Origin: Mytilus trossulus
Taxonomy: Eukaryota
Reading direction: 5' to 3'
Assembly: GCF_036588685.1 (NCBI RefSeq)
Contig: NC_086381.1
Coordinates: 50,220,001-50,284,000 of the forward strand
Length of the DNA: 64,000 nucleotides
In this document: positions 1,241 through 15,554 of the stretch, piece after piece
Position numbering within the stretch: position 1 is the first letter of the stretch
Layout of the letters: every line of letters starts with the position of its first letter
Translations under genes and position numbers: made by a program
The notes under the pieces: model-generated
What the model saw: the letters and a program-made list of their open reading frames with translations, nothing else
Told to the model about the DNA's origin: nothing
The model's database searches: none

Positions 1241-2719
1241 AAAAATGAGGGGGCGGGGGAAGAAATAAGAAAAATCACCAGTCCTTGAGGGATCAATCCA
1301 TCCAGTAGCCGTTACATTTTAACTAAATTTAAAGATGAATCAAGTTGTAACACACGCAAAGAGTCAATAATCTACGAACACTTTCAAAATGATCTCAAAA
1401 TGTTACTTGGCCGTTAACCCTTTTTTTAACATGGTAATAGTCCTGTATAGAAGAATCTTGACTTATTCAGGAAACAGTCGTAATGATTTTAGTAAGATCT
1501 AATCGATTAATGTCAGACATCGCGGAATCTATCAAATTAATCATGTAAAACTGTTTGAAATACACAGGGAAAAGAATCATTAAACGATTTTCTAAGGAGT
1601 TTTAATTTGTTTTTGGCACTAACACGTTAAAGTGTCAAAACGTCTAAAATAGATGACTTGAATATTAGCTTTCGAAGGTCGGTCGGTTTCTTTTAAAGAA
1701 GAGCCACGTGTTATAGTACTTAATGAATACTAGTACTATGTAAAAAATATCCACTCAAAATTGCCGGTGACAAAAGATTTTATTCAATATTATTTATTGA
1801 AAAATACATGGGACAAACCGAGGTCCTTTGGTATAAGGATTTAAAAGTACTATATCCAGAAAAGAAGATTTGGTATGATTGCTAATGAAACAACTCTCCA
1901 TAGAAAACAGGCCCTTTAAAATATTTGTTCATAATTTAAAACTCCTTCCAAAAAAACCCTGAGTAAAATGAAATGCCACTCTGGTCACTTTTAGAAAAGA
2001 ACCTTATATTTGTGGTTCTGTTATTCTGTTATTATGAATATACCCTACACTGTAATTTTGACAATCTTAGGTGTTGTATTTGCTTTTCAAAGAAGCTGAC
2101 ATTGGGGGATGGACCGCGGAGATGGTACAAAGTAAACTGTGCCACACACCACATAAATAAAATTGATAACTAAACACAATGTAGGAATACATTTAGCAAT
2201 ATTACTTATAAATGTATATTAAATCGTCAATATAAGTCGAAAAATATATTATCAAAAGGACTGAAATTTGTGAGCACATATATACATAACAATTATATTC
2301 CTAATACAGTCACTTTTAGATAACATGTAATTTAACTAAAGAAAATCATTTTAAAATTAAATTTTGAAATACTTTTTTAAATATTTGATTGACTTATCCC
2401 ACTTGAAAAGAATTGCTGTACCTATTGACAAGGGTACACGGCCAAGTTGTGATTTTTTTCTCAAAAAAAGCTCAAAAATCATACGTTACAATAATATTTC
2501 AAAAGATTGGTTTTTTTTTTCAATTATAACATACGTAATTATTAAAAAAAAAAGTTACGTTCTTGCATTTCAAATTCAAGAAATACAATATAAATTGAAA
2601 AAGACGGGGAAAAAATACATAGTTTACCATATGCTGAATCTTGTTGCACCAAGAAGAATATTTATTATTATTATTTAATCTTGATGAATTCAGCTGAAGT
2701 TAAATTGATGTTTGTAATC

Positions 2720-3079
2720 AACAGCACTTAGCTTGGGTGAAGACTTGTATAGAAAGGTGTCAGCTTGGTATTGTCAAAGTAATCACATGTATGATACAGG
2801 TATTTCATATTATTTATCGCGTTAATTACATTAACACATAATATTATGCACTGGCTTCGGCAATCAATGTTGCTCAAATTGGTAAATTGATAAACAAATT
2901 GGTTATTATGGCTTATTATTAAATTGTATCTTTAAACAATAAAAGCTTAGATTGTTTTGATAAGTAATTTGTTAACGCTATGAGTGCTCTTAACATCAGG
3001 TATATATACTGCCCATGACACTGTTCGCTCATTCTCAGTTTTTCTCTCAACATTTCACATCTGACAATATTCTCTCAAT
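2720..3079 (+). promoter_or_regulatory. Proximal promoter/5' UTR of homeobox paralogue 1 with TATA box (~3001-3008)
   Basis: About 360 bp of non-coding sequence aligns with 11767-12127 upstream of paralogue 2, including the near-identical block tgataagtaatttgttaacgcNatgagtgctcttaacatcaggtatatatactg. The TATA lies about 75 nt upstream of the ATG. Confidence 0.7.
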
Positions 3080-3901
3080 ATGAGTCTTGTGACAGTACAG
3101 AAACCAGTTAAGATGTCTTTCAGCATTGACGAGCTAGCGAAGAGTAGTAGGGTTAACAGTTTAGATCATACTAAACATGTCGGCAGCATATACGCTAAAT
3201 TCCAGAGCATCGTCAGATTTCAGCAAGAGAATACGCCAGTGAAGTTACAAGCCACTGTCCAACCAATGACCAGTACTCCTATTTCGTTACCGCTCGCAAA
3301 TTCAAACATAGAGCGACAACTCAAAAGAAAAAGGGAAAACGACTCAATTTATTCAGCAGATAGCAGTCTTGAATCATCTGAAACCAAATCAACAGACAGT
3401 CTTTCGTCAATCTCAGACGACACGACTGAAATACAAGACAAACCAAGTAAAAAGGCAAGATGTATGTTTACGTCAAAACAGATTACAGAATTAGAACAAT
3501 GTTTCTTAACGAACAGATTTCTGCCTATAGAAGACAGACCAATATTGGCTAAAAGACTGAAGCTTAGTCAACAACAAGTTAAAACATGGTTCCAGAATCG
3601 TCGAATGAAAGAAAAACGCCTACAAAAACTTGGAACAACAACAGAATGGCAGAAGATGGCACAAGGTACACAGTTCATTTCTAAGACAGCACAGTTTCCA
3701 CCACATGAGACCGGATGTCAGCCCCATACACTTCCAGGCTACTTCCAACACCAGTACCCAGGATCACCATTAACACAGATTTATGATCCGATGTCACTTA
3801 TGTATGGATACGGTCTAATGTCGCCCGTTATGCATCCAGAGTACAGTCGACAGGTTTACAATGGACTATCTCCTCAGCCAATAGATCAACACAGAATGTG
3901 A
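3080..3901 (+). CDS. Intronless NKL/ANTP-class homeobox transcription factor (Vent/Bsx/Nanog-like helix 3), paralogue 1, 273 aa
   Basis: Complete 60-aa homeodomain at 3446-3625 (SKKARCMFTSKQITELEQCFLTNRFLPIEDRPILAKRLKLSQQQVKTWFQNRRMKEKRLQ; R5, F8, L16, F20, W48, F49, Q50, N51). N-terminal eh1-like FSIDELA, Ser-rich linker and P/Y/Q-rich tail. Family assignment is uncertain. Confidence 0.93.
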   Translation: MSLVTVQKPVKMSFSIDELAKSSRVNSLDHTKHVGSIYAKFQSIVRFQQENTPVKLQATVQPMTSTPISLPLANSNIERQLKRKRENDSIYSADSSLESSETKSTDSLSSISDDTTEIQDKPSKKARCMFTSKQITELEQCFLTNRFLPIEDRPILAKRLKLSQQQVKTWFQNRRMKEKRLQKLGTTTEWQKMAQGTQFISKTAQFPPHETGCQPHTLPGYFQHQYPGSPLTQIYDPMSLMYGYGLMSPVMHPEYSRQVYNGLSPQPIDQHRM

Positions 3902-4439
3902 TGAAACAATTAAAACAATCATATGTGATATATGTGACTTAACTTACTGTTGATGTGTGAAATGCTTGTTTTTATTTATTTTTGTTATGAATATTGTTGA
4001 TATGTTATTGTTATGGTATAAATATGAAATACTGCACTGACTTTGTATTGGTTTTTTTTAAAGATGATTTTATATGCTGTACTTTATTACTTTGACTTTT
4101 CATAAAAATTAACACATTCATATCAAAATACAACATGAACATTTCCAAACGTTTAAAGACCAATAATCTTTTCAAACGCGATAGCCTGTCATAATATCAT
4201 AATCCATGAGCTTCATCCGGTTTCACTTTTGGTATTTGTCAGTTAATCTCTTCACTGCTATAATTTTTGTATAGCTTAAATGTATTTTGGTTTTGGCAAG
4301 GAATGGTGATCAGATAAACCCAGCACCATTACATCACTAGCATACAATTCAAATATCAAATTCATCTTGTTAAACCGTAACGATTGTTGTGGGGCTATAA
4401 ACCGAGGGAAGAGCTTGTAATGCCTTATTGACTGAAACT

Positions 4440-7400
4440 GAACAATGATATGAATGTATACGTCAATACGTTAATAAACATAATGATATGTGGGGTATAC
4501 GTCAAAACAGGTTATAAACAAAATAGGATGTGGCTTAACGTCAATACAGTTTATAAACATAATGAGATCCGGGGTATTCGTCAATATAATTAATAAACAG
4601 AATGAGATGTGGGGTATACGTCAATAAGGTTTATGAACAAAAGAGATGTGGGATATACGTCAAAACATTTAATAAACAGAATGAGATATGGGGGATACGT
4701 CAATACAGTTAATAAACAGAATGAGATGTGGGGTATACGTCAATACAGTTAATAAACAGAATGAAATGTGAGCTATACGTCAATACAATTGATAAACAGA
4801 ATGAGATGCGGGGTATACGTCAATACAGTTAATAAACAGAATGAAATGTGAGCTATACGTCAATACAATTGATAAACAGAATGAGATGCGGGGTATACGT
4901 CAATACAGGTAATAAATTCTGTTTGCTAACTGTATTGACGTATACCCCACATCTCATTCTGTTTATTACCTGTATTGACGTATACCCCACATCTCATTCT
5001 GTTTGTTAACTGTATTGACGTATACCCCACATCTCATTCTGTTTATTATCTGTATTGGCGTATACCCCACATCTCATTCTGTTTATTACCTGTATTGACG
5101 TATACCCCGCATCTCATTCTGTTTATCAATTGTATTGACGTATAGCTCACATTTCATTCTGTTTATTAACTGTATTGACGTATACCCCGCATCTCATTCT
5201 GTTTATCAATTGTATTGACGTATAGCTCACATTTCATTCTGTTTATTAACTGTATTGACGTATACCCCACATCTCATTCTGTTTATTAACTGTATTGACG
5301 TATAACCCACATCTCCTTCTGTTTATCAACTGTATTGACGTATACCCCACATCCCATTTTGTTTATTACCTGTATTGACGTATACCCCACATCTCATTCT
5401 GTTTGTTAACTGTATTGACGTATACCCCACATCTCATTCTGTTTATTACCTGTATTGACGTATACCCCACATCTCATTCTGTTTGTTAACTGTATTGACG
5501 TATACCCCACATCTCATTCTGTTTATTAACTGTATTGGCGTATACCCCACATCTCATTCTGTTTATTACCTGTATTGACTTATACCCCAAATCTTTTCAT
5601 AAACCTCACTGACGTATACCCCACATCTCATTATGTTTATTAGCTGTATTGACGTATACCCCACATCTCATTCTGTTTATTAACTGTTTTGACGTATAAC
5701 CCACATCTCATTCTGTTTATTAACTGTTTTGACGTATAACCCACATCTGATGTGGGGTATACGTCAATACAGGTAATAAACAAAATGGGATGTGGGGTAT
5801 ACGTCAATACAGTTGATAAACAGAAGGAGATGTGGGTTATACGTCAATACAGTTAATAAACAGAATGAGATGTGGGGTATACGTCAATACAGTTAATAAA
5901 CAGAATGAAATGTGAGCTATACGTCAATACAATTGATAAACAGAATGAGATGCGGGGTATACGTCAATACAGTTAATAAACAGAATGAAATGTGAGCTAT
6001 ACGTCAATACAGTTGATAAACGGAATGAGATGTGGGTTATACGTCAATACAGTTAATAAACAGAATGAGATGTGGGTTATACGTCAATACAGCTAATAAA
6101 CATAATGAGATGTGGGTTATACGTCAATACAGTTAACAAACAGAATGAGATGTGGGGTATACGTCAATACAGCTAATAAACATAATGAGATGTGGGGTAT
6201 ACGTCAATACAGTTAATAAACAGAATGAAATGTGAGCTATACGTCAATACAATTGATAAACAGAATGAGATGCGGGGTATACGTCAATACAGTTAATAAA
6301 CAGAATGAAATGTGAGGTATACGTCAATACAGTTAATAAACAGAATGAAATGTGAGGTTTACGTCAATACAGTTAATAAACAGAATGAGATGCGGGGTAT
6401 ACGTCAATACAGTTAATAAACAGAATGAAATGTGAGCTATACGTCAATACAATTGATAAACAGAATGAGATGCGGGGTATACGTCAATACAGGTAATAAA
6501 CAGAATGAGATGTGGGGTATACGTCAATACAGTTAATAAACAGAATGAAATGTGAGGTATACGTCAATACAGTTAATAAACAGAATGAAATGTGAGCTAT
6601 ACGTCAATACAGTTAATAAACAGAATGAAATGTGAGCTATACGTCAATACAGTTGATAAACAGAATGAGATGTGGGTTATACGTCAATACAGTTAACAAA
6701 CAGAATGAGATGTGGGGTATACGTCAATACAGCTAACAAACATGATGAGATGTGAGGTATACGTCAATACAGTTAATAAACAGAATGAAATGTGAGGTAT
6801 ACGTCAATACAGTTAATAAACAGAATGAAATGTGAGGTATACGTCAATACAGTTAATAAACAGAATGAAATGTGAGCTATACGTCAATACAGTTAATAAA
6901 CAGAATGAAATGTGAGCTATACGTCAATACAGTTGATAAACAGAATGAGATGTGGGTTATACGTCAATACAGTTAATAAACAGAATGAAATGTGAGCTAT
7001 ACGTCAATACAGTTGATAAACAGAATGAGATGTGGGTTATACGTCAATACAGTTAATAAACAGAATGAGATGTGGGTTATACGTCAATACAGTTAATAAA
7101 CAGAATGAAATGTGAGCTATACGTCAATACAGTTGATAAACAGAATGAGATGCGGGGTATACGTCAATACAGTTAATAAACAGAATGAAATGTGAGCTAT
7201 ACGTCAATACAGTTGATAAACAGAATGAGATGTGGGTTATACGTCAATACAGTTATTAAACAGAATGAGATGTGGGTTATACGTCAATACAGTTAATAAA
7301 CAGAATGAAATGTGAGCTATACGTCAATACAGTTGATAAACAGAATGAGATGTGGGTTATACGTCAATACAGTTAATAAACAGAATGAAATGTGAGCTAT

Positions 7401-8500
7401 ACGTCAATACAGTTGATAAACAGAATGAGATGTGGGTTATACGTCAATACAGTTAATAAACAGAATGAGATGTGGGTTATACGTCAATACAGTTAATAAA
7501 CAGAATGAAATGTGAGCTATACGTCAATACAGTTGATAAACAGAATGAGATGCGGGGTATACGTCAATACAGTTAATAAACAGAATGAAATGTGAGCTAT
7601 ACGTCAATACAGTTGATAAACAGAATGAGATGTGGGTTATACATCAATACAGTTAATAAACAGAATGAGATGTGGGTTATACGTCAATACAGCTAATAAA
7701 CATAATGAGATGTGGGGTATACGTCAATACAGGTAATAAACATAATGAGATGTGAGGTGTACGTCAATACAGTTAATAAACAGAATGAGATGTGGGGTAT
7801 ACGTCAATACAGTTAATAAACAGAATGAAATGTGAGCTATACGTCAATACATTTAATAAACAGAATGAGATGTGGGGTATACGTCAATTCAGTAAATAAA
7901 CAAAATGAGATATGGGGTATAAGTCAATAAGGTTTATGAACAAAAGAGATGTGATTTATATGTCAATACAGTTTATAAACAGAATGAGATGTGGGATATA
8001 CGTCAAAACAGGTAATAAACAAAATGGGATGTGGGGTATACGTCAATGAGGTTTATGAACAAAATAGATGTGAGGTGTACGTCAATACAGTTAATTAACA
8101 GAATGAGATGTGGGGTAAACGTCAAAACAGTTTATAAACAGAATGAGACGTGAGGTATACGCCAAGATCAATAAAAAGAGATTTGGGGTATACGTCAATA
8201 CAGTTGTTTATGATCAAAGAGAGATGTGGGGTATACGTCAATACAGTTTATGATCAAAAGATATGTGGGGTATACGTCAATACAGTTGTTAATGATTAAA
8301 AAGAGATGTGGGGTATACATCAATTAGGTTTTTATGATAAAAAAAAAGATGTGGGGTATACGTCAATAAGGTGTTTATGATAATAAAAAAAAGAGATGTG
8401 GGGTATACGTCAATACAGTTTATGATCAAAAGAGATGTTGGGTATACGTCAATAATGTTTAGGTTCAAAGAGTGGTGTGGGGTATACGTCAATAATGTTT
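4440..8500. repeat. 40-bp tandem satellite (~100 units) with an internal inverted block at 4917-5748
   Basis: Consensus aataaacagaatgagatgtggggtatacgtcaatacagtt with variants tgtgagctat, tgtgggttat and tgcggggtat. Degenerate at both ends; residual units resume at 9512-9570 after two insertions. Confidence 0.97.
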
Positions 8501-8501
8501 A

Positions 8502-8757
8502 GCCTGTAATCCAGTGATTGTCGTTTGTATATGTTTTACATACTTGTTTTTCGTTTATTTTTTACTTAAATAAGGCCGTTAGTTTTCTCGTTTGAATTGT
8601 TTTACATTGTCCTATCGGGGTCTTTTATAGCTGACTATGTGGTATGGGCTTTGCTCATTGTTGAAGGCCGTCAACCTATAGTTGTTAATGTTTGTGTCAT
8701 TTTGGTCTTTTGTGAATAGTTGTCTCATTGGCAATCATATCACATCTTCTTTATATC
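8502..8757 (-). mobile_element. Abundant dispersed short repeat (terminus aagaagatgtg..atgattgccaatgagacaact) inserted in the satellite edge
   Basis: Related copies or fragments at about 1861, 17258-17570, 18365-18530, 20470-20610, 27300, 35790-36010, 43455 and 47688-47830. Class not determined. Confidence 0.65.
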
Positions 8758-8760
8758 TTA

Positions 8761-9511
8761 CTAGATTACACCCGTGATATCGCGGGTCCGTGACTGAATT
8801 TAAGTATATAACTATGAGCAAGACTTATTTTTGTATTAGTATTGTCATCTGATAAAGTCATGCCGCCGACTATAAGAAAGTTATCACAGTTTTCTCTGCT
8901 TTCAAATCTTTCTGTTTGAACCCGTCTAACTGGAACTTATCAATAATTTGTAATTTTAATGATTTGGAAAACAAAAGGTCATGGGATGGAGTATTTTTTT
9001 AATCAACAGCATTGTCCTATATTAGTTATAAATAAAGTTGAATTCTTTGATTCGCTGTTTTCATGACGTCATGCCCGCTAACAAATTAAAAAACTGTACA
9101 TATACGCCTTATTTTTAGTATTCGTATTGTTATCTTATAAAGTCTTAATGATTAAAGTACTACAATAGGTAACAATTTGACAATTTAGTAGTGTCAACCC
9201 TGTGATTATGACCCGTGCATATAGCATATCCTGAATACACCGTTTGGTTGTGCGCCTGCCAAATGCGGAACGTACAGATAAGGTAATAGGTAACAGATGA
9301 ATATACTATTGGTATCGGTATCGGACTCGACCCGGAACTTCTTAATTATTGGCAATATTAATTACGTGGAAAACAAAAGAGCCTGGAGTGGTGTAATTTT
9401 TAATCTACACCTGTGTACTATATTAGTTATATGTAAAGTTGAAATCTTTGATTCGTCGTTTTTACGTGATGACGGCTGACAAATTGGACCTCGTAATTTT
9501 AGTATTATAGA
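8761..9511 (-). mobile_element. Non-autonomous Helitron, copy 2 (inverted relative to copy 1)
   Basis: Reverse complement of 232-972: CTAG at 8761-8764, hairpin cccgtgatatcgcggg, 5' TC at 9511-9510, A|T insertion site. Confidence 0.88.
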
Positions 9512-10644
9512 TATTTAGGTTCAAAAAGATATGTGGAGTATACGTCAATAAGGTTTATGATCAAAAGAATAGTAGGAAATCCTTCTGTTGTAAGAGAGAG
9601 AAAAAAAATGACATGGGGGCAGTACGACCAAATGTACACTTAAAATTCACAAAACAAATAATTTTTAAGCAACACAAACCCCACCAAACACAGGGTTCTA
9701 ATTAAGAAGCCAACAGAAGGTTAGAAGTACTCGTTTCACTAATGATACACAATGATCATGATGGCGTCTGTTTAACCTAAGAACAGATGATTTTAACATA
9801 ACCAATTCGAGAGCCTTGGTTCAACATCTTACTTATAAGCAGCAATCTCCACATTGAATGGAAAGGCAAGTTCGTGTATATCGTTTTACCCAATCGGCAA
9901 TCCTTGGGTGACTCCGCTTCTCTCCTTAGATGAGGTACGGAATCGGCCGAGTTGTGATGATTGTTGTTTTACCTTGAAGATATATGTCCCTTATAAGTTG
10001 CTTCAGAGAAATGGAATTATGTTCATAATATGAAAGCTGAAATATTTTTTTGGGGTCATAAAGTTCAATATTTTACTGAATTCTCCCTTTCAATTTCGAA
10101 AGATAGGAAGCATGCAACCTCAACAGTATGTGTGGTATCTTTTTAATTGTTTCAAGCTCGATGATCGGTAGCTGCCATCACCATGGTCCACAAAATATGC
10201 TAGTATACCTTTGTTTATCTAAAAATCATAATAAAACAGCACCCCCCCCCCCCCATAACATGATGGAAGACTTAAAATATGCATATGTTTAATAAGGCAT
10301 CTTACAGTACTTGAAAAAAAATGCATACACAATTCAAATGATCATATCGGTATTCAAAATACATATTCTCAACTTAAAAAAAAACTACACAAAAAATAAG
10401 GACAAAACAAGAAAAAGAAAAAGAAACATCACCAATCCCCCCCCCAAAAAAAAAATACAAAAAACTACTTATATTAAATAACTTTTATCATTCAGAAATC
10501 ATTCCTTTTTAAAACCCTTTGGAATATAACGAAAATTGGGAATGATTCTTCATGATCAATAGACAGTACTATGTCGACACAATTTGGAATGTTTTTTTCT
10601 TCAGTTTTTTTGGTATTTACTGGACATATTTTGTGTGTGTGTAA

Positions 10645-11376
10645 TGCCTCGTTCACACGGACATTTAATTCGAATTGAATTCGAATCTAATGCGAATCGA
10701 ATTCGCAAATCGCGAAACATACTTTTTTTTTTCGAATTGATTCGTATTGGCTAATTCCGAATTAACTAATTCGCATTAGAAATACGTTTTTGTTAATCCG
10801 AATTAAAAGTAAACGTGTGAACTCAGCAGAACGTTATCATTTTTATAAATAAAGTGTTTAAGGCACCAATAAGTTAGTCCTAATTTTATGGAATGTTAAA
10901 GCTTTTAAATGACGGGACAAAGATGAATAACATCAGAAGAATTTTTTTTTTCTTTTCTTTTTTCTTCTTATCGTAAGATTGATTTTTTAAACAAGATAAT
11001 TTGTGAAAATTACATGCCTTATGACAAAGCGACATTTAGAACAGACCCCTGGAGTTTTTACAACTAAATGACAGTCTAATGCTGAGTTTACACGTAATTC
11101 GAATTCGATTCGCATTAACTAATTCGACTTAAGTTTAATTCGCATTAGAAACGTTTTACGTCCAAACGTCAATTCTAATTCGAATTACAATGAGCGTCAA
11201 ATTCGCTTTACTGGTCAAACGACGTTAACTTTTAATTCGTATTAGCAAAAGCGTATTTCTAATGCGAGTTAGTTAATTCGAATTAGCCAATTCGAATTAA
11301 AAAAGAAGAGTGTGTGAACGCTATTAGCGAATTCGATTCGCATTCAATTCGAATTAAATAACGTGTGAACGAGGCA
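10645..11376. mobile_element. Non-autonomous TIR element, probably PIF/Harbinger-type, with long AATTCG-rich subterminal inverted arrays
   Basis: TIR TGCCTCGTTCACACG ... CGTGTGAACGAGGCA, flanked by TAA/TGA (TNA-type 3-bp site). Many aattcg/cgaatt motifs at both ends. Confidence 0.8.
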
Positions 11377-11766
11377 TGAGTTTTCGTTATAATATATACT
11401 TATCAAGTTTGACAAAAAAACTTCAAAGTTGTTAGAATTTATTCCGTCAGAGACTTCTAATATTTTCGAATTAAAAAATTACCCCAAAACGGGTGTTTTC
11501 GTTGCATTTTTATTAAAAGTTATGAACCACATATTTATTCTTTTTAATAATGCTTGTTTAAATTTCAATTTTCTTTTATTTACGATATTTCACTATGATC
11601 TTAATGCTCACGTATTTTAATATTTGTGTAGTAGTAATTTATATATAATTGTTGTTAATTTTCATACCTTTTCGATCAGTTTGTTATCTACGATGGTTTT
11701 AATCAAATTGCAAATAATCTTCATTAATGAATATCGTTAGTTTAGATTTATTTGGCGTTTCTAATT

Positions 11767-12127
11767 ACAGCGCTTAGCTTGGGTGACGACTTGTTTAGAA
11801 AGGTGCCATCTAAGTATTGTCAAAGCGATTATAACAATTACGGAGCAATAAAAACACTAATTAATCTTGTTAATTACATTAAAACTTGATATTTGGCAAT
11901 GGCTTCGGCAATCATGGTTGCTCAAATTGGTAAATTGAGAAACAAATAGGTTTTCATTGCCAATTATCAATTTGTATCTTTAAACAGTAGAAGCTTAGAT
12001 TGTTGTGATAAGTAATTTGTTAACGCGATGAGTGCTCTTAACATCAGGTATATATACTGTCCATGACACTGTTCGCTCATTCTCAAGTTCTCGATCAACA
12101 ATTCACATTTGACAACAATCCCTCAAC
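11767..12127 (+). promoter_or_regulatory. Proximal promoter/5' UTR of homeobox paralogue 2 with TATA box (~12049-12056)
   Basis: Aligns with 2720-3079 and has the same TATA context (caggtatatatactg). Confidence 0.7.
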
Positions 12128-12928
12128 ATGAGTCTTGTCACAGTACAGAAACCAGTTAAGATGTCTTTCAGCATCGATGAGCTTGCTAAGAGTAGCAGAG
12201 GTACCAGTTCAGACCAGACCAAACATGTCGGCAGCATATATGCTAGATTTCAGAGCATTGTCAAATTTCATCAAGAGACTACCCCAGTGAAGTTACAAGC
12301 CACTGTCCAACCAATGACAAGTACTCCTATCTCGCTACCACTCGCTAATCCCAACGTAGAGCGACAATTTAAAAGAAAAAGAGAAGAAGATTCAATTTAC
12401 TCAGCCGACAGCAGCCTTGAATCATCTGAAACCAAATCAACAGACAGTCTTTCGTCAATCTCAGACGACACGACTGAAATACAAGACAAACCAAGTAAAA
12501 AGGCAAGATGTATGTTTACGTCAACACAGATTACAGAATTAGAACAATGTTTCTTAACTAACAGATTTCTACCTATTGAAGACAGACCAATACTGGCTAA
12601 AAGACTGAAGCTTAGTCAACAACAAGTTAAAACATGGTTCCAGAATCGTAGAATGAAAGAAAAACGCCTACAAAAACTTGGAACAACAGAATTGCAGAAG
12701 TTAGCACATGATACACACGTTTCAGTGACGACAGCACAAGTTCCACCTACACTTCCTGGATACTTCAGCTACCAAAATCAGTACCCAGGATCACCATCAA
12801 CACAGTTTTATGATCCGATGTCACTTATGTATGGGTACGGTACGATGTCACCCGTTATGTATCCAGAATACAGCCGACCGGTTTACACTGGACTTTCTCC
12901 TCCGCTGGTAGAACACCACAGAGTCTGA
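12128..12928 (+). CDS. Intronless NKL/ANTP-class homeobox transcription factor, paralogue 2, 266 aa
   Basis: Homeodomain at 12494-12673 differs from paralogue 1 at one residue (K11T). Same eh1-like FSIDELA motif. AATAAA at about 13033. Confidence 0.93.
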   Translation: MSLVTVQKPVKMSFSIDELAKSSRGTSSDQTKHVGSIYARFQSIVKFHQETTPVKLQATVQPMTSTPISLPLANPNVERQFKRKREEDSIYSADSSLESSETKSTDSLSSISDDTTEIQDKPSKKARCMFTSTQITELEQCFLTNRFLPIEDRPILAKRLKLSQQQVKTWFQNRRMKEKRLQKLGTTELQKLAHDTHVSVTTAQVPPTLPGYFSYQNQYPGSPSTQFYDPMSLMYGYGTMSPVMYPEYSRPVYTGLSPPLVEHHRV

Positions 12929-13610
12929 TACAACAAGAACTATGACTTGAATAATATTTGTCAGTTGATATGCAATATGCTTGTTTTAATTTATTATTGT
13001 TATGGATATTATTAAAATGTTATTGTTGTACTAATAAATATGAAAATACTTAACCTGACTATCATTGTTTTTAGAAATCAAACATCCAAATACTATCCAC
13101 ATTGATATGTGTACACACTTGTTTTATATATATAAAAAAAAAAGAATCACTCAGAGGTACAAACACACAAAAAATGAAAAAAAGCCCACACATTTGAAAA
13201 AGACTTCCAAAGACATCCTATTGTGTCTGCTTATACCATGTATATATGTACGGTAGTTGTTCTATATGGTACATCTAGTCAGTTTGGTTTACTAGTACTT
13301 AAGATTACCCTCGTACACCTAACAATTTCAGGTTTTTCTTTTTAATGAGTTCTTTGGCTTTGCATAGCAATATTCATAAAAATGATATAAGGAAATAATT
13401 ACTAACGTGCGTCCAAATGTTCAGAACAGCAACCAAACTTAAGAGGTATTGTAAATTAGGTAGCTTGAACAACAAGCACATTGAGTGGTCTTTAAAGATA
13501 GAAGACAATGGAATTCCATTACAAAAAATAAACATGAATTTATTAAAAAAAAATGTCTAAATATAATGGTGCCAAACGGCATATATCTATTTTATACTGA
13601 TTTATTGATA

Positions 13611-14429: not shown

Positions 14430-15080
14430 TATACTTTTCATCGAGGAGTATAATATGGTGTATCTGGTTGTTCCAGGATCGAAAGTGCTGTTGCTACTGC
14501 CCCTGGAAATGGCATTATTAGTGGCGATGTGTCTGGTGGTGTCCGGGGTAACTCGGGATAATCTAGGTCAAATCTCTCGTCTTAGTCAATCTAGTATCGC
14601 TTGCCTCTGTCGATGGTTGGTTGAAAATAATTATTGACGATGACATGCCTTCCTGGGGTTGAACGGACTGATGGCGATGTCCGTTTTTATGACGATCCCC
14701 GCAGGTTCACCTTGATATTTTGTAGGTAATATCTCCCTGTTTCCCTCTAGCAATGCTTTGGCTTCTGTTTGCTGTTTCTGATCTACCCTGGTGGTTGGTG
14801 GTATAACCTCAGCCGATGTTGCAGCAGAGCTTTTGGCGTGCACCCACTGGTCATAACGCTTGGCGTCCCTCGGTTTACTGTTTTTCAGGTCCTGCTTGGA
14901 TTTACTGGAGGATGCCTCTGGTTCCTTAGCCTTGTTCAGTATTAATTGTACGGTCACCTGGTCAGAACTTGCCGAAAACTTCCAAGCAGGTTCTTTACCA
15001 GACACGTTCAAGTCTGCTAATAAAGCTTTCAATTCATCAGGGATTTCCTTAATGATTTGTCCAAGAATTGAATCGTGATG
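14430..15080 (-). pseudogene. Degenerate ORF remnant of unknown, probably transposon, origin
   Basis: GC content above background. Protein-like frame ILGQIIKEIPDELKALLADLNVSGKEPAWKFSASSDQVTVQL...PRDAKRYDQW lacks an ATG and breaks into other frames downstream. Confidence 0.4.
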
Positions 15081-15554
15081 TGATCAATACAAATTACAAT
15101 CGAATTTAGAACCAGAGACATATGTTAGATCTATTTTTCTAATGCATGTAGTTTAAAGGTTTGGTTGGCTTGTTTGCTCATGCATACAGACGATACAAGA
15201 GCACTGTGAACAAAACAAAAACAGCTCCTTCTGTTTTCGTTTAAATGATTTGGAACGCAACATTTGTTTGAAATGGTACGCGAACAAAGGCTTTTTGAAT
15301 TGACAAATTTTCAAATAAAAGAAAGATTGAATCAAAATCTTTACGGCTGATCTGGATGAATATATTATATAATGTGCGAAAAGTGTATGCCCAAAATCAT
15401 TGAGCAACCAGTATATCAAAGTGTATGCCACTTAGATATGTCAAATATTTCTTGATAAATAAAGTTGAGATATGTTACGACTTGAATCTAATAACAAATT
15501 TAAAGGGAAAGGTGCACATTTTGTACTCATAAGAATACGCACATATATATATAT

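Follow-up and report, generated by a model that had tools for sequence, protein, structure and literature searches.

The described homeobox genes that stand closest to those reported here belong to a family that has been recorded under two names. The residues KEKR are given as a mark of ANTP NKL Clade I by Paps et al. 2015 (PMC5322547), and Li et al. 2020 (PMC7566022) record this gene from 8 molluscs under the name 'Vent1-like', with a homeobox split by an intron and, in oyster, a location on the NK-gene chromosome. Vent itself has been described as confined to chordates (PMC3033397), VENTX has been found polyphyletic (PMC3351468), and VENTX and NANOG have been argued to be vertebrate-specific (PMC7190326; PMC9331430). 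The family is without a function or an expression pattern in the papers that could be reached. The present work concerns a 64 kb stretch of the genome of the mussel Mytilus trossulus (contig NC_086381.1, positions 50,220,001 to 50,284,000, hereafter the window), which contains a pair of intronless homeobox genes, A and B, and compares the pair with its described relatives and with an ordinary, intron-bearing family member on another chromosome of the same genome (C4), here called the parent.

Genes A and B are single-frame homeobox open reading frames (ORFs) whose starts lie 9,048 bp apart, and they are two of the four ATG-initiated ORFs of at least 100 amino acids in the window. The reading preferred here, with a probability of about 0.65, is that they are transcribed intronless paralogues of NKL Clade I, that they belong to a fast-evolving daughter clade founded by a DNA duplicate which kept its promoter and lost its introns, and that they would act as briefly expressed embryonic repressors through an eh1-like motif and Groucho. 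The features of the pair are as follows.

3080..3901, + strand: gene A, an NKL Clade I (Vent-like) homeobox ORF of 273 amino acids without introns, from the ORF, Pfam, protein matches and RNA contigs
12128..12928, + strand: gene B, an NKL Clade I (Vent-like) homeobox ORF of 266 amino acids without introns, from the ORF, Pfam and B-type RNA contigs
3446..3625, + strand: homeobox of A (R5, T47, Q50, N51, M54, KEKR), unbroken where the parent has an intron, at codon 44/45
12494..12673, + strand: homeobox of B, differing from A at one residue
3119..3139, + strand: eh1-like FSIDELA, copy A; the family members of chiton and Capitella have FSIDSIL and FSIDNIL at the aligned place
12167..12187, + strand: eh1-like FSIDELA, copy B, from the sequence
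2710..4055, + strand: duplicated unit, copy A (promoter, ORF and 3' untranslated region), blastn self-match to 11757-13072, 83% over 1362 columns
11757..13072, + strand: duplicated unit, copy B, blastn self-match
3368..3476, + strand: 109-nt tract identical in A and B, a length reached by 0 of 2000 codon shuffles

The first-pass annotation of this DNA had described two intact intronless ORFs in tandem about 9 kb apart, an N-terminal FSIDELA, a TATA promoter and the homeodomain residues C6, M7, C19, F25, P27, P32 and T47, and all of these are present, with the qualification that P27 is shared with the parent and is therefore no novelty of the pair. Both homeodomains have Q50 and M54 in addition, their third helix is QVKTWFQNRRMKEKR, FSIDELA occupies residues 14-20 in both proteins, and each protein gives a Pfam Homeodomain match of about 1e-18. 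A single-sequence AlphaFold model has three helices at a mean predicted local distance difference test score of 78, and the modelled fold of A and B is a three-helix homeodomain in which the contact residues R5, T47, Q50, N51 and M54 are retained. The duplicated unit has a size of about 1.35 kb, and the identical tract within it makes gene conversion between A and B likely. No further family members were found in the 104 kb examined.

Judged by sequence, A and B are members of the already named family, ANTP NKL Clade I or 'Vent1-like', and the suggestion of an unnamed lineage family in the first-pass annotation falls away. Their closest proteins (83-92%) are those of Mytilus edulis, M. galloprovincialis and M. 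coruscus, and several ORFs of this genome are identical to proteins recorded for M. trossulus. The matches outside mussels, in oyster, scallop, clam, abalone, limpet, chiton and Capitella, have a homeodomain ending in QVKTWFQNRRMKEKR, as the pair has. The KEKR signature is present as RRMKEKR at the homeodomain C-terminus of A and B, and pair and family also have in common the N-terminal FSI.xLA.SS and a basic KRKR, a criterion drawn from the present alignment, together with a Ser-rich linker. In both homeodomain trees (the first with 64 rows, 7 of them from the mussel's own genome) A and B lie on one side of a branch with the Cgi_NKL-type, Capitella and limpet members; the bootstrap labels of this branch are weak (20/90 and 37/90), and the same grouping is one-sided in 60% and 93% of bootstrap trees. 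The differences from the family are nevertheless considerable. The typical molluscan form, with a homeobox intron and a place on the NK chromosome, is that of the C4 parent and not that of A and B, which are intronless and lie on C9; the family has one homeobox intron, the mussel parent two introns and the pair none. A and B are further set apart by being multi-copy, by a divergent N-terminal arm and helix 1, by a sister subclade with Trp at position 47, and by the loss of the P[TS]GGV..PCPPP motif behind the homeodomain (again a criterion drawn here), which is present in the parent and in a copy on C14. The homeodomain of A is 62% identical to that of the parent, and the parent's is 87% identical to that of oyster.

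Some further observations concern the family at large. KEKR alone is not diagnostic, since the coral protein P0092 (Montipora; RRMKEKR) and two Hox-like proteins also end in it, and two sponge homeodomains (P0140, P0169) are 70-77% identical to slow molluscan members; from the coral ending and the sponge identity the family may be older than Lophotrochozoa. Independent multi-copy sets occur in Pecten maximus (4 copies), in Argopecten, Mizuhopecten and Ylistrum (3 each) and in the chiton Liolophura (4). Lopx (Barton-Owen 2018) was considered as an identity and rejected as a different family, Cg_NKL being listed separately there. A metagenome scan with a profile kept 80 of 376 loci, none of them a close relative; WFQNRRMK[ED]K was found in 4 of the 80, all Hox-like with I47.

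As to the relation of this family to Vent, Nanog, Bsx and Barx, the first-pass annotation had proposed a Vent/Nanog-like gene and had taken T47 with M54 as the mark of Vent, Bsx and Nanog. The exclusivity of that mark does not hold, as Barx, BarH, Tlx, Lbx and Hhex have T47 as well, Barx together with M54; the combination of T47 with Q50, a criterion for Vent/VENTX (PMC3033397) that A and B show, is likewise not exclusive to Vent. The likeness to Vent is real, in that the top named non-mollusc matches of the parent's homeodomain region are Saccoglossus Vent1 and Ptychodera Vent1 (hemichordate) and bird VENTX, the identity being 68% with Saccoglossus Vent1 and 58-60% with Bsx. It is possible, if doubtful, that deuterostome Vent has its true protostome orthologue in this family and that the mussel copies act in a dorsoventral circuit driven by bone morphogenetic protein (BMP), repressing chordin and goosecoid; T47 with Q50, the best matches and the parent's place on the NK chromosome speak for it, and in an approximately unbiased (AU) test on 60 columns NKL Clade I with Vent is not rejected (p 0.11) and NKL Clade I with Bsx is rejected (p 0.038), the tree for this test having lost 28 of its 64 rows as long or redundant and containing no amphioxus, frog or fish Vent. 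However, no supported branch joins the family to deuterostome Vent in either homeodomain tree, both being too weak for deep NKL relations, and in neither of them do the Vent genes form a single clade, in line with the polyphyly of VENTX in PMC3351468. Sponge genes are 70-72% identical to the parent, which is as close as or closer than Vent, no GC-rich Smad1-type element was found at -520..-100 in any of 12 promoter regions, and PMC7190326 argues for a vertebrate-specific VENTX and NANOG. Deuterostome Vent genes (hemichordate Vent1, amphioxus Vent1/2, vertebrate VENTX) resemble the pair in their T47/Q50/M54 NKL homeodomain, in their lineage-specific tandem duplicates and in the N-terminal repressor region of the amphioxus protein (PMC3033397), but have K[WL]KR in place of KEKR and are 48-52% identical to A; in the proximal promoters on the mussel side no Smad1-type element was found. 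A bolder extension, in which NKL Clade I would be the missing protostome Vent and the mussel genes an embryonic battery, the promoter-kept duplicate having given a dozen fast genes whose Thr47 and Trp47 helix forms have different targets and make up a mussel-specific code for early blastomere or dorsoventral fate, is decidedly improbable.

A different identity for the pair, as a divergent Bsx, Barx or Nanog, has hardly any probability left. T47 with M54, automatic names that include BARHL and 'brain-specific homeobox', and an AU test in which a grouping of A alone with Bsx is not rejected (p 0.14) are consistent with it, but a Bsx-like gene (80%) and a Barx-like gene are present separately on C6, A is 47-50% identical to Bsx, whose signature is RRMKHKK, and the whole-protein motifs and trees point to NKL Clade I; Bsx was rejected as an identity on the separate gene and the whole-protein evidence. 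Nanog, too, is a T47 NKL gene that evolves fast and tends to give intronless copies (processed pseudogenes; PMC3351468), but it shows no special sequence likeness, is absent from the present trees and has been argued to be vertebrate-specific (PMC7190326); Nanog chains in the PDB rank below BarH-like, Gbx and Hox for A and below Gbx, Barx-type, Hox-B1 and Hhex for the parent, and those ranks do not favour this identity. Of the first-pass proposal there remain the divergent, fast-evolving NKL gene distinct from Bsx, Barx and Hhex, and the likeness to Vent without that to Nanog.

The assignment to NKL Clade I leads to the question of how the mussel genes came to lack introns. The parent (C4:75017117-75015206, 272 amino acids) has two GT-AG introns, a first of 682 bp and a second of 411 bp that follows homeobox codon 44, near which the homeobox is split in 8 of 8 'Vent-like' mollusc entries (Li 2020; PMC7566022). 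Both introns are spliced out in RNA runs X2 and X4, and run X9 shows the second only as skipped, its parent contig having above exon 2 other sequence that was not found within 20 kb around the parent; run X12 has no parent exon among its contigs, an absence which proves nothing. C4 also carries Tlx-, Hmx-, NK7-, NK4-, NK1-, NK3-, Lbx- and Msx-like homeoboxes and, on these names as read from the sequence, is the NK-gene chromosome. Genome searches found at least 14 relatives without introns, of which 12 are intact and 2 are broken (these counts being lower bounds), so that the pair makes up two of at least 12 intact copies; the others are eight more on C9, one on C1 and one on C14. All 12 read unbroken through both parent intron sites, and they form one clade (97/93 on the 60 columns of the homeodomain, 100/99 on whole proteins), which indicates that the introns were lost once. 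The intronless state, correctly recorded for the pair in the first-pass annotation, is a derived mussel condition and no trait of the family.

Within the clade the C14 copy branches first and retains PSGGV..PCPPP, and homeodomain identity to limpet falls from 80% in the parent through 65% in C14 and 58% in A to 50-55% in the copies with Trp at homeodomain position 47. The family has Thr at this position and A and B keep it, but 9 of the 12 intact copies have Trp; these form one clade at 100/95, and Trp47 is found in 31 proteins among the 120 matches listed. Metagenome proteins, some of them on contigs of 130-910 kb, were placed in all three subclades, which suggests that the radiation may be common to other mussels. 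The Trp47 copies may be the family's most unusual members; one of them, L004 (C9:12.182 Mb), has an intact ORF and, in place of the TATA promoter, A-rich runs 20-150 bases above the ATG, a loss that is likely due to an insertion or a later retrocopy. In one of the two broken copies the homeobox contains two stops and is followed by an insertion; the other copy is frameshifted and 5'-truncated.

C9:12.18, 12.19, 27.14, 41.31, 41.36, 41.456, 41.461 and 51.86 Mb, and C1:100.729 Mb: nine intact Trp47 paralogues (L004-L008, L010-L013), helix 3 ..IKWWFQNRRMKEKR
C1:100.7256 Mb (L003) and C9:41.3567 Mb (L043): broken copies

The route by which the introns were lost can be approached through the promoters, of which the following elements are shared.

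2733..2776, + strand: upstream block common with the parent, copy A, 32/44 against the parent's -384..-341, with two GCTTGG motifs, one at its start and one within
11779..11822, + strand: upstream block, copy B, 38/44 against A and 28/44 against the parent
2999..3033, + strand: TATA box GGTATATATAC (an 11-mer identical to the parent's) and initiator-like CTCATT, copy A
12047..12057, + strand: TATA box, copy B

In both copies TATATATA lies 79 bases before the ATG, as the first-pass claim of a TATA promoter would have it, with CTCATT about 30 bases further on. The 11-mer GGTATATATAC is present in the parent, A and B and has no other occurrence in 144 kb of control DNA on both strands, and the 44-nt block, at -347 in A and -384 in the parent, matches at 32 of 44 positions, the best of 300 random windows reaching 29. 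CTCAY follows the TATA box at a distance of 22-32 bases in 11 of 12 promoters, as against 3 of 242 random TATA sites. With the disrupted-promoter copy left out, GCTTGG occurs in 9 of 12 (background 0.08 per 420 bp window), and TAATTAG in 10 of 12 (background 5% of windows); TALE-type TGACA sites were not clearly over background. Since the TATA box, the initiator-like site and the upstream block are common with the parent, a DNA duplicate is favoured over a plain retrocopy, and the founder was somewhat more probably a duplicate with loss of both introns mediated by complementary DNA (cDNA): a DNA copy of the parent would have arisen in mussels with its promoter kept, would have lost both introns by recombination with cDNA, and its descendants would have spread to C9, C1 and C14 and diverged fast.

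The alternative, a true retrocopy with the same family and function, made either from a parent transcript begun far upstream or from a normal mRNA that later gained a similar promoter independently, is tentative. The exact loss of both introns and the relocation from C4 to C9, C1 and C14 are textbook marks of retroposition, and a low-depth X9 contig that covers 2859-3049, above the TATA box of A, indicates that longer transcripts may exist. A simple retrogene, however, would have no parent homology above the transcription start, and here such homology is found in the TATA 11-mer and the 44-nt block, strong in A and weak in B and C14. An mRNA initiated at the TATA box cannot carry DNA from 270 bases above it, yet the block at -347 matches that at -384 in the parent; moreover, the parent contigs of X2 and X4 end within 30 bases above the ATG. 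No poly-A scar was seen at a common 3' site, although age would erase one.

A and B are transcribed: A-type and B-type RNA contigs in X2 and X4, the runs that also hold spliced RNA of the parent, span about 3050-3900 and not the flanks, and so the pair is not silent. They are also under purifying selection, with synonymous and nonsynonymous divergences between them of dS 0.34 and dN 0.07 (dN/dS 0.2). Orthologues of both are found in M. edulis, M. galloprovincialis and M. coruscus, which makes the pair common to four Mytilus species, and those of M. galloprovincialis have consecutive accessions on one scaffold (VDI48584.1 for A, VDI48583.1 for B), the parent in that species being VDI77893.1 and the C14-type copy VDI82447.1. 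It is unlikely that the copies are instead a birth-and-death cloud with redundant, weak, germline or adult roles, in which the Trp47 or motif-less copies would be dominant-negative or non-binding competitors of the parent. Such turnover would accommodate the 2 broken copies among 14 and the one disrupted promoter, a dN/dS of 0.22-0.43 among Trp47 pairs, and the loss in A and B of a motif kept from chiton to mussel. It fits poorly with homeodomains that differ by 1 residue between A and B while their N-terminal dS is 0.64, with a pair kept in four species, and with the fixation of Trp47 in the listed proteins noted above, which looks like selection rather than decay.

As to what the preferred reading predicts of function, A and B are probably early, brief, Groucho-dependent repressors, this being the likeliest reading of their function. 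Their homeodomains would bind DNA and their eh1-like motif is predicted to recruit Groucho; because R5, T47, Q50, N51 and M54 are retained, they likely read a site like that of the parent, adding dose or a new domain, and the Trp47 sister copies would likely read a different site or bind poorly. Short intronless genes with a TATA box suit fast transcription in cleaving embryos. At the position aligned with FSIDELA a canonical eh1 motif is found in the chiton and in the annelid Capitella. Amphioxus Vent1 represses and binds Grg4 by its N-terminus (PMC3033397), and in oyster 67% of lineage-restricted novel homeobox genes peak before the trochophore (PMC5322547). The SPILE (spiralian TALE) genes and other early-embryo homeobox expansions resemble the mussel genes in lineage-restricted duplication and fast divergence, but SPILE genes are of the TALE class and the mussel genes of the ANTP class; two papers on embryos make no mention of the gene.

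Several observations weigh against this account, in its dating, its mechanism and its function. A motif of 15 residues is shared by the parent, A, B and C14, occurs in 0 of 27 non-mussel members and by this distribution favours an origin within mussels; its pattern was drawn after the alignment had been seen. The whole-protein tree joins the parent to oysters (83/92, not starred) and not to the intronless clade, so that an older origin of that clade is possible; we infer that a mussel-only origin is likely. The core promoters of A, B and C14 are closer to the parent's than 242 of 242 random TATA sites, but random TATA sites are not real promoters and the null is lenient. The upstream block is weaker in B (28-29/44, with 6 of 300 random windows reaching 29) and, at 26/44, within the null in C14, and promoter likeness to the parent is at background level in the Trp47 copies. 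Unanchored local alignment of 300-nt upstream regions against the parent is unclear (20 and 63 of 200 shuffles score as high for A and B), the promoter signal being seen with the TATA-anchored and 500-nt tests only. The RNA runs are without stage or tissue label, and as they hold less than 0.3 of the words they come from relatives or divergent alleles. A and B, being without the PTGGVD..PCPPP motif, need not work like the parent, and FSIDELA does not fit the eh1 consensus FxIxxIL in its final two residues.

The mussel radiation is real and is an apparently unreported variant of a known family. Searches on Vent or NKL in molluscs, on intronless or retrogene homeobox genes in Mytilus and on Mytilus developmental transcriptomes, which did not extend to subscription journals and bioRxiv supplements, found no published description of it or of Trp47, and a literature search on position 47 gave nothing relevant. 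The radiation matters for its dozen intronless copies, for a fixed Trp at a base-contacting position and for a promoter inherited, as the preferred reading has it, from the parent, and it is possibly a natural case of intron loss with the promoter retained. For Mytilus there are in situ methods and a staged embryonic transcriptome, that of M. galloprovincialis covering 0-72 hpf (bioRxiv 10.1101/2023.07.27.550798), so that timing, BMP dependence and Thr47/Trp47 specificity can be addressed together.

The remaining features of the region concern the DNA around the pair.

4456..8501, no strand assigned: 40-bp minisatellite array between the copies, about 100 units, a spacer with no role shown

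The array accounts for about 4 kb of the spacer, and its orientation changes at about 4916 and changes back at about 5749, leaving an inverted segment at 4916-5748. Gene A is flanked by a 780-bp element in inverted orientation (226-974 and 8759-9517 of the window, 87% identical), of which there are more copies nearby. On the minus strand, about 4.7-10.2 kb before the start of the window, lies what reads as a broken element like a long interspersed nuclear element (L044), with endonuclease-like and reverse-transcriptase-like frames, and a 150-codon open stretch at 14631-15083, also on the minus strand and in a GC-richer region, is likely of mobile-element origin.

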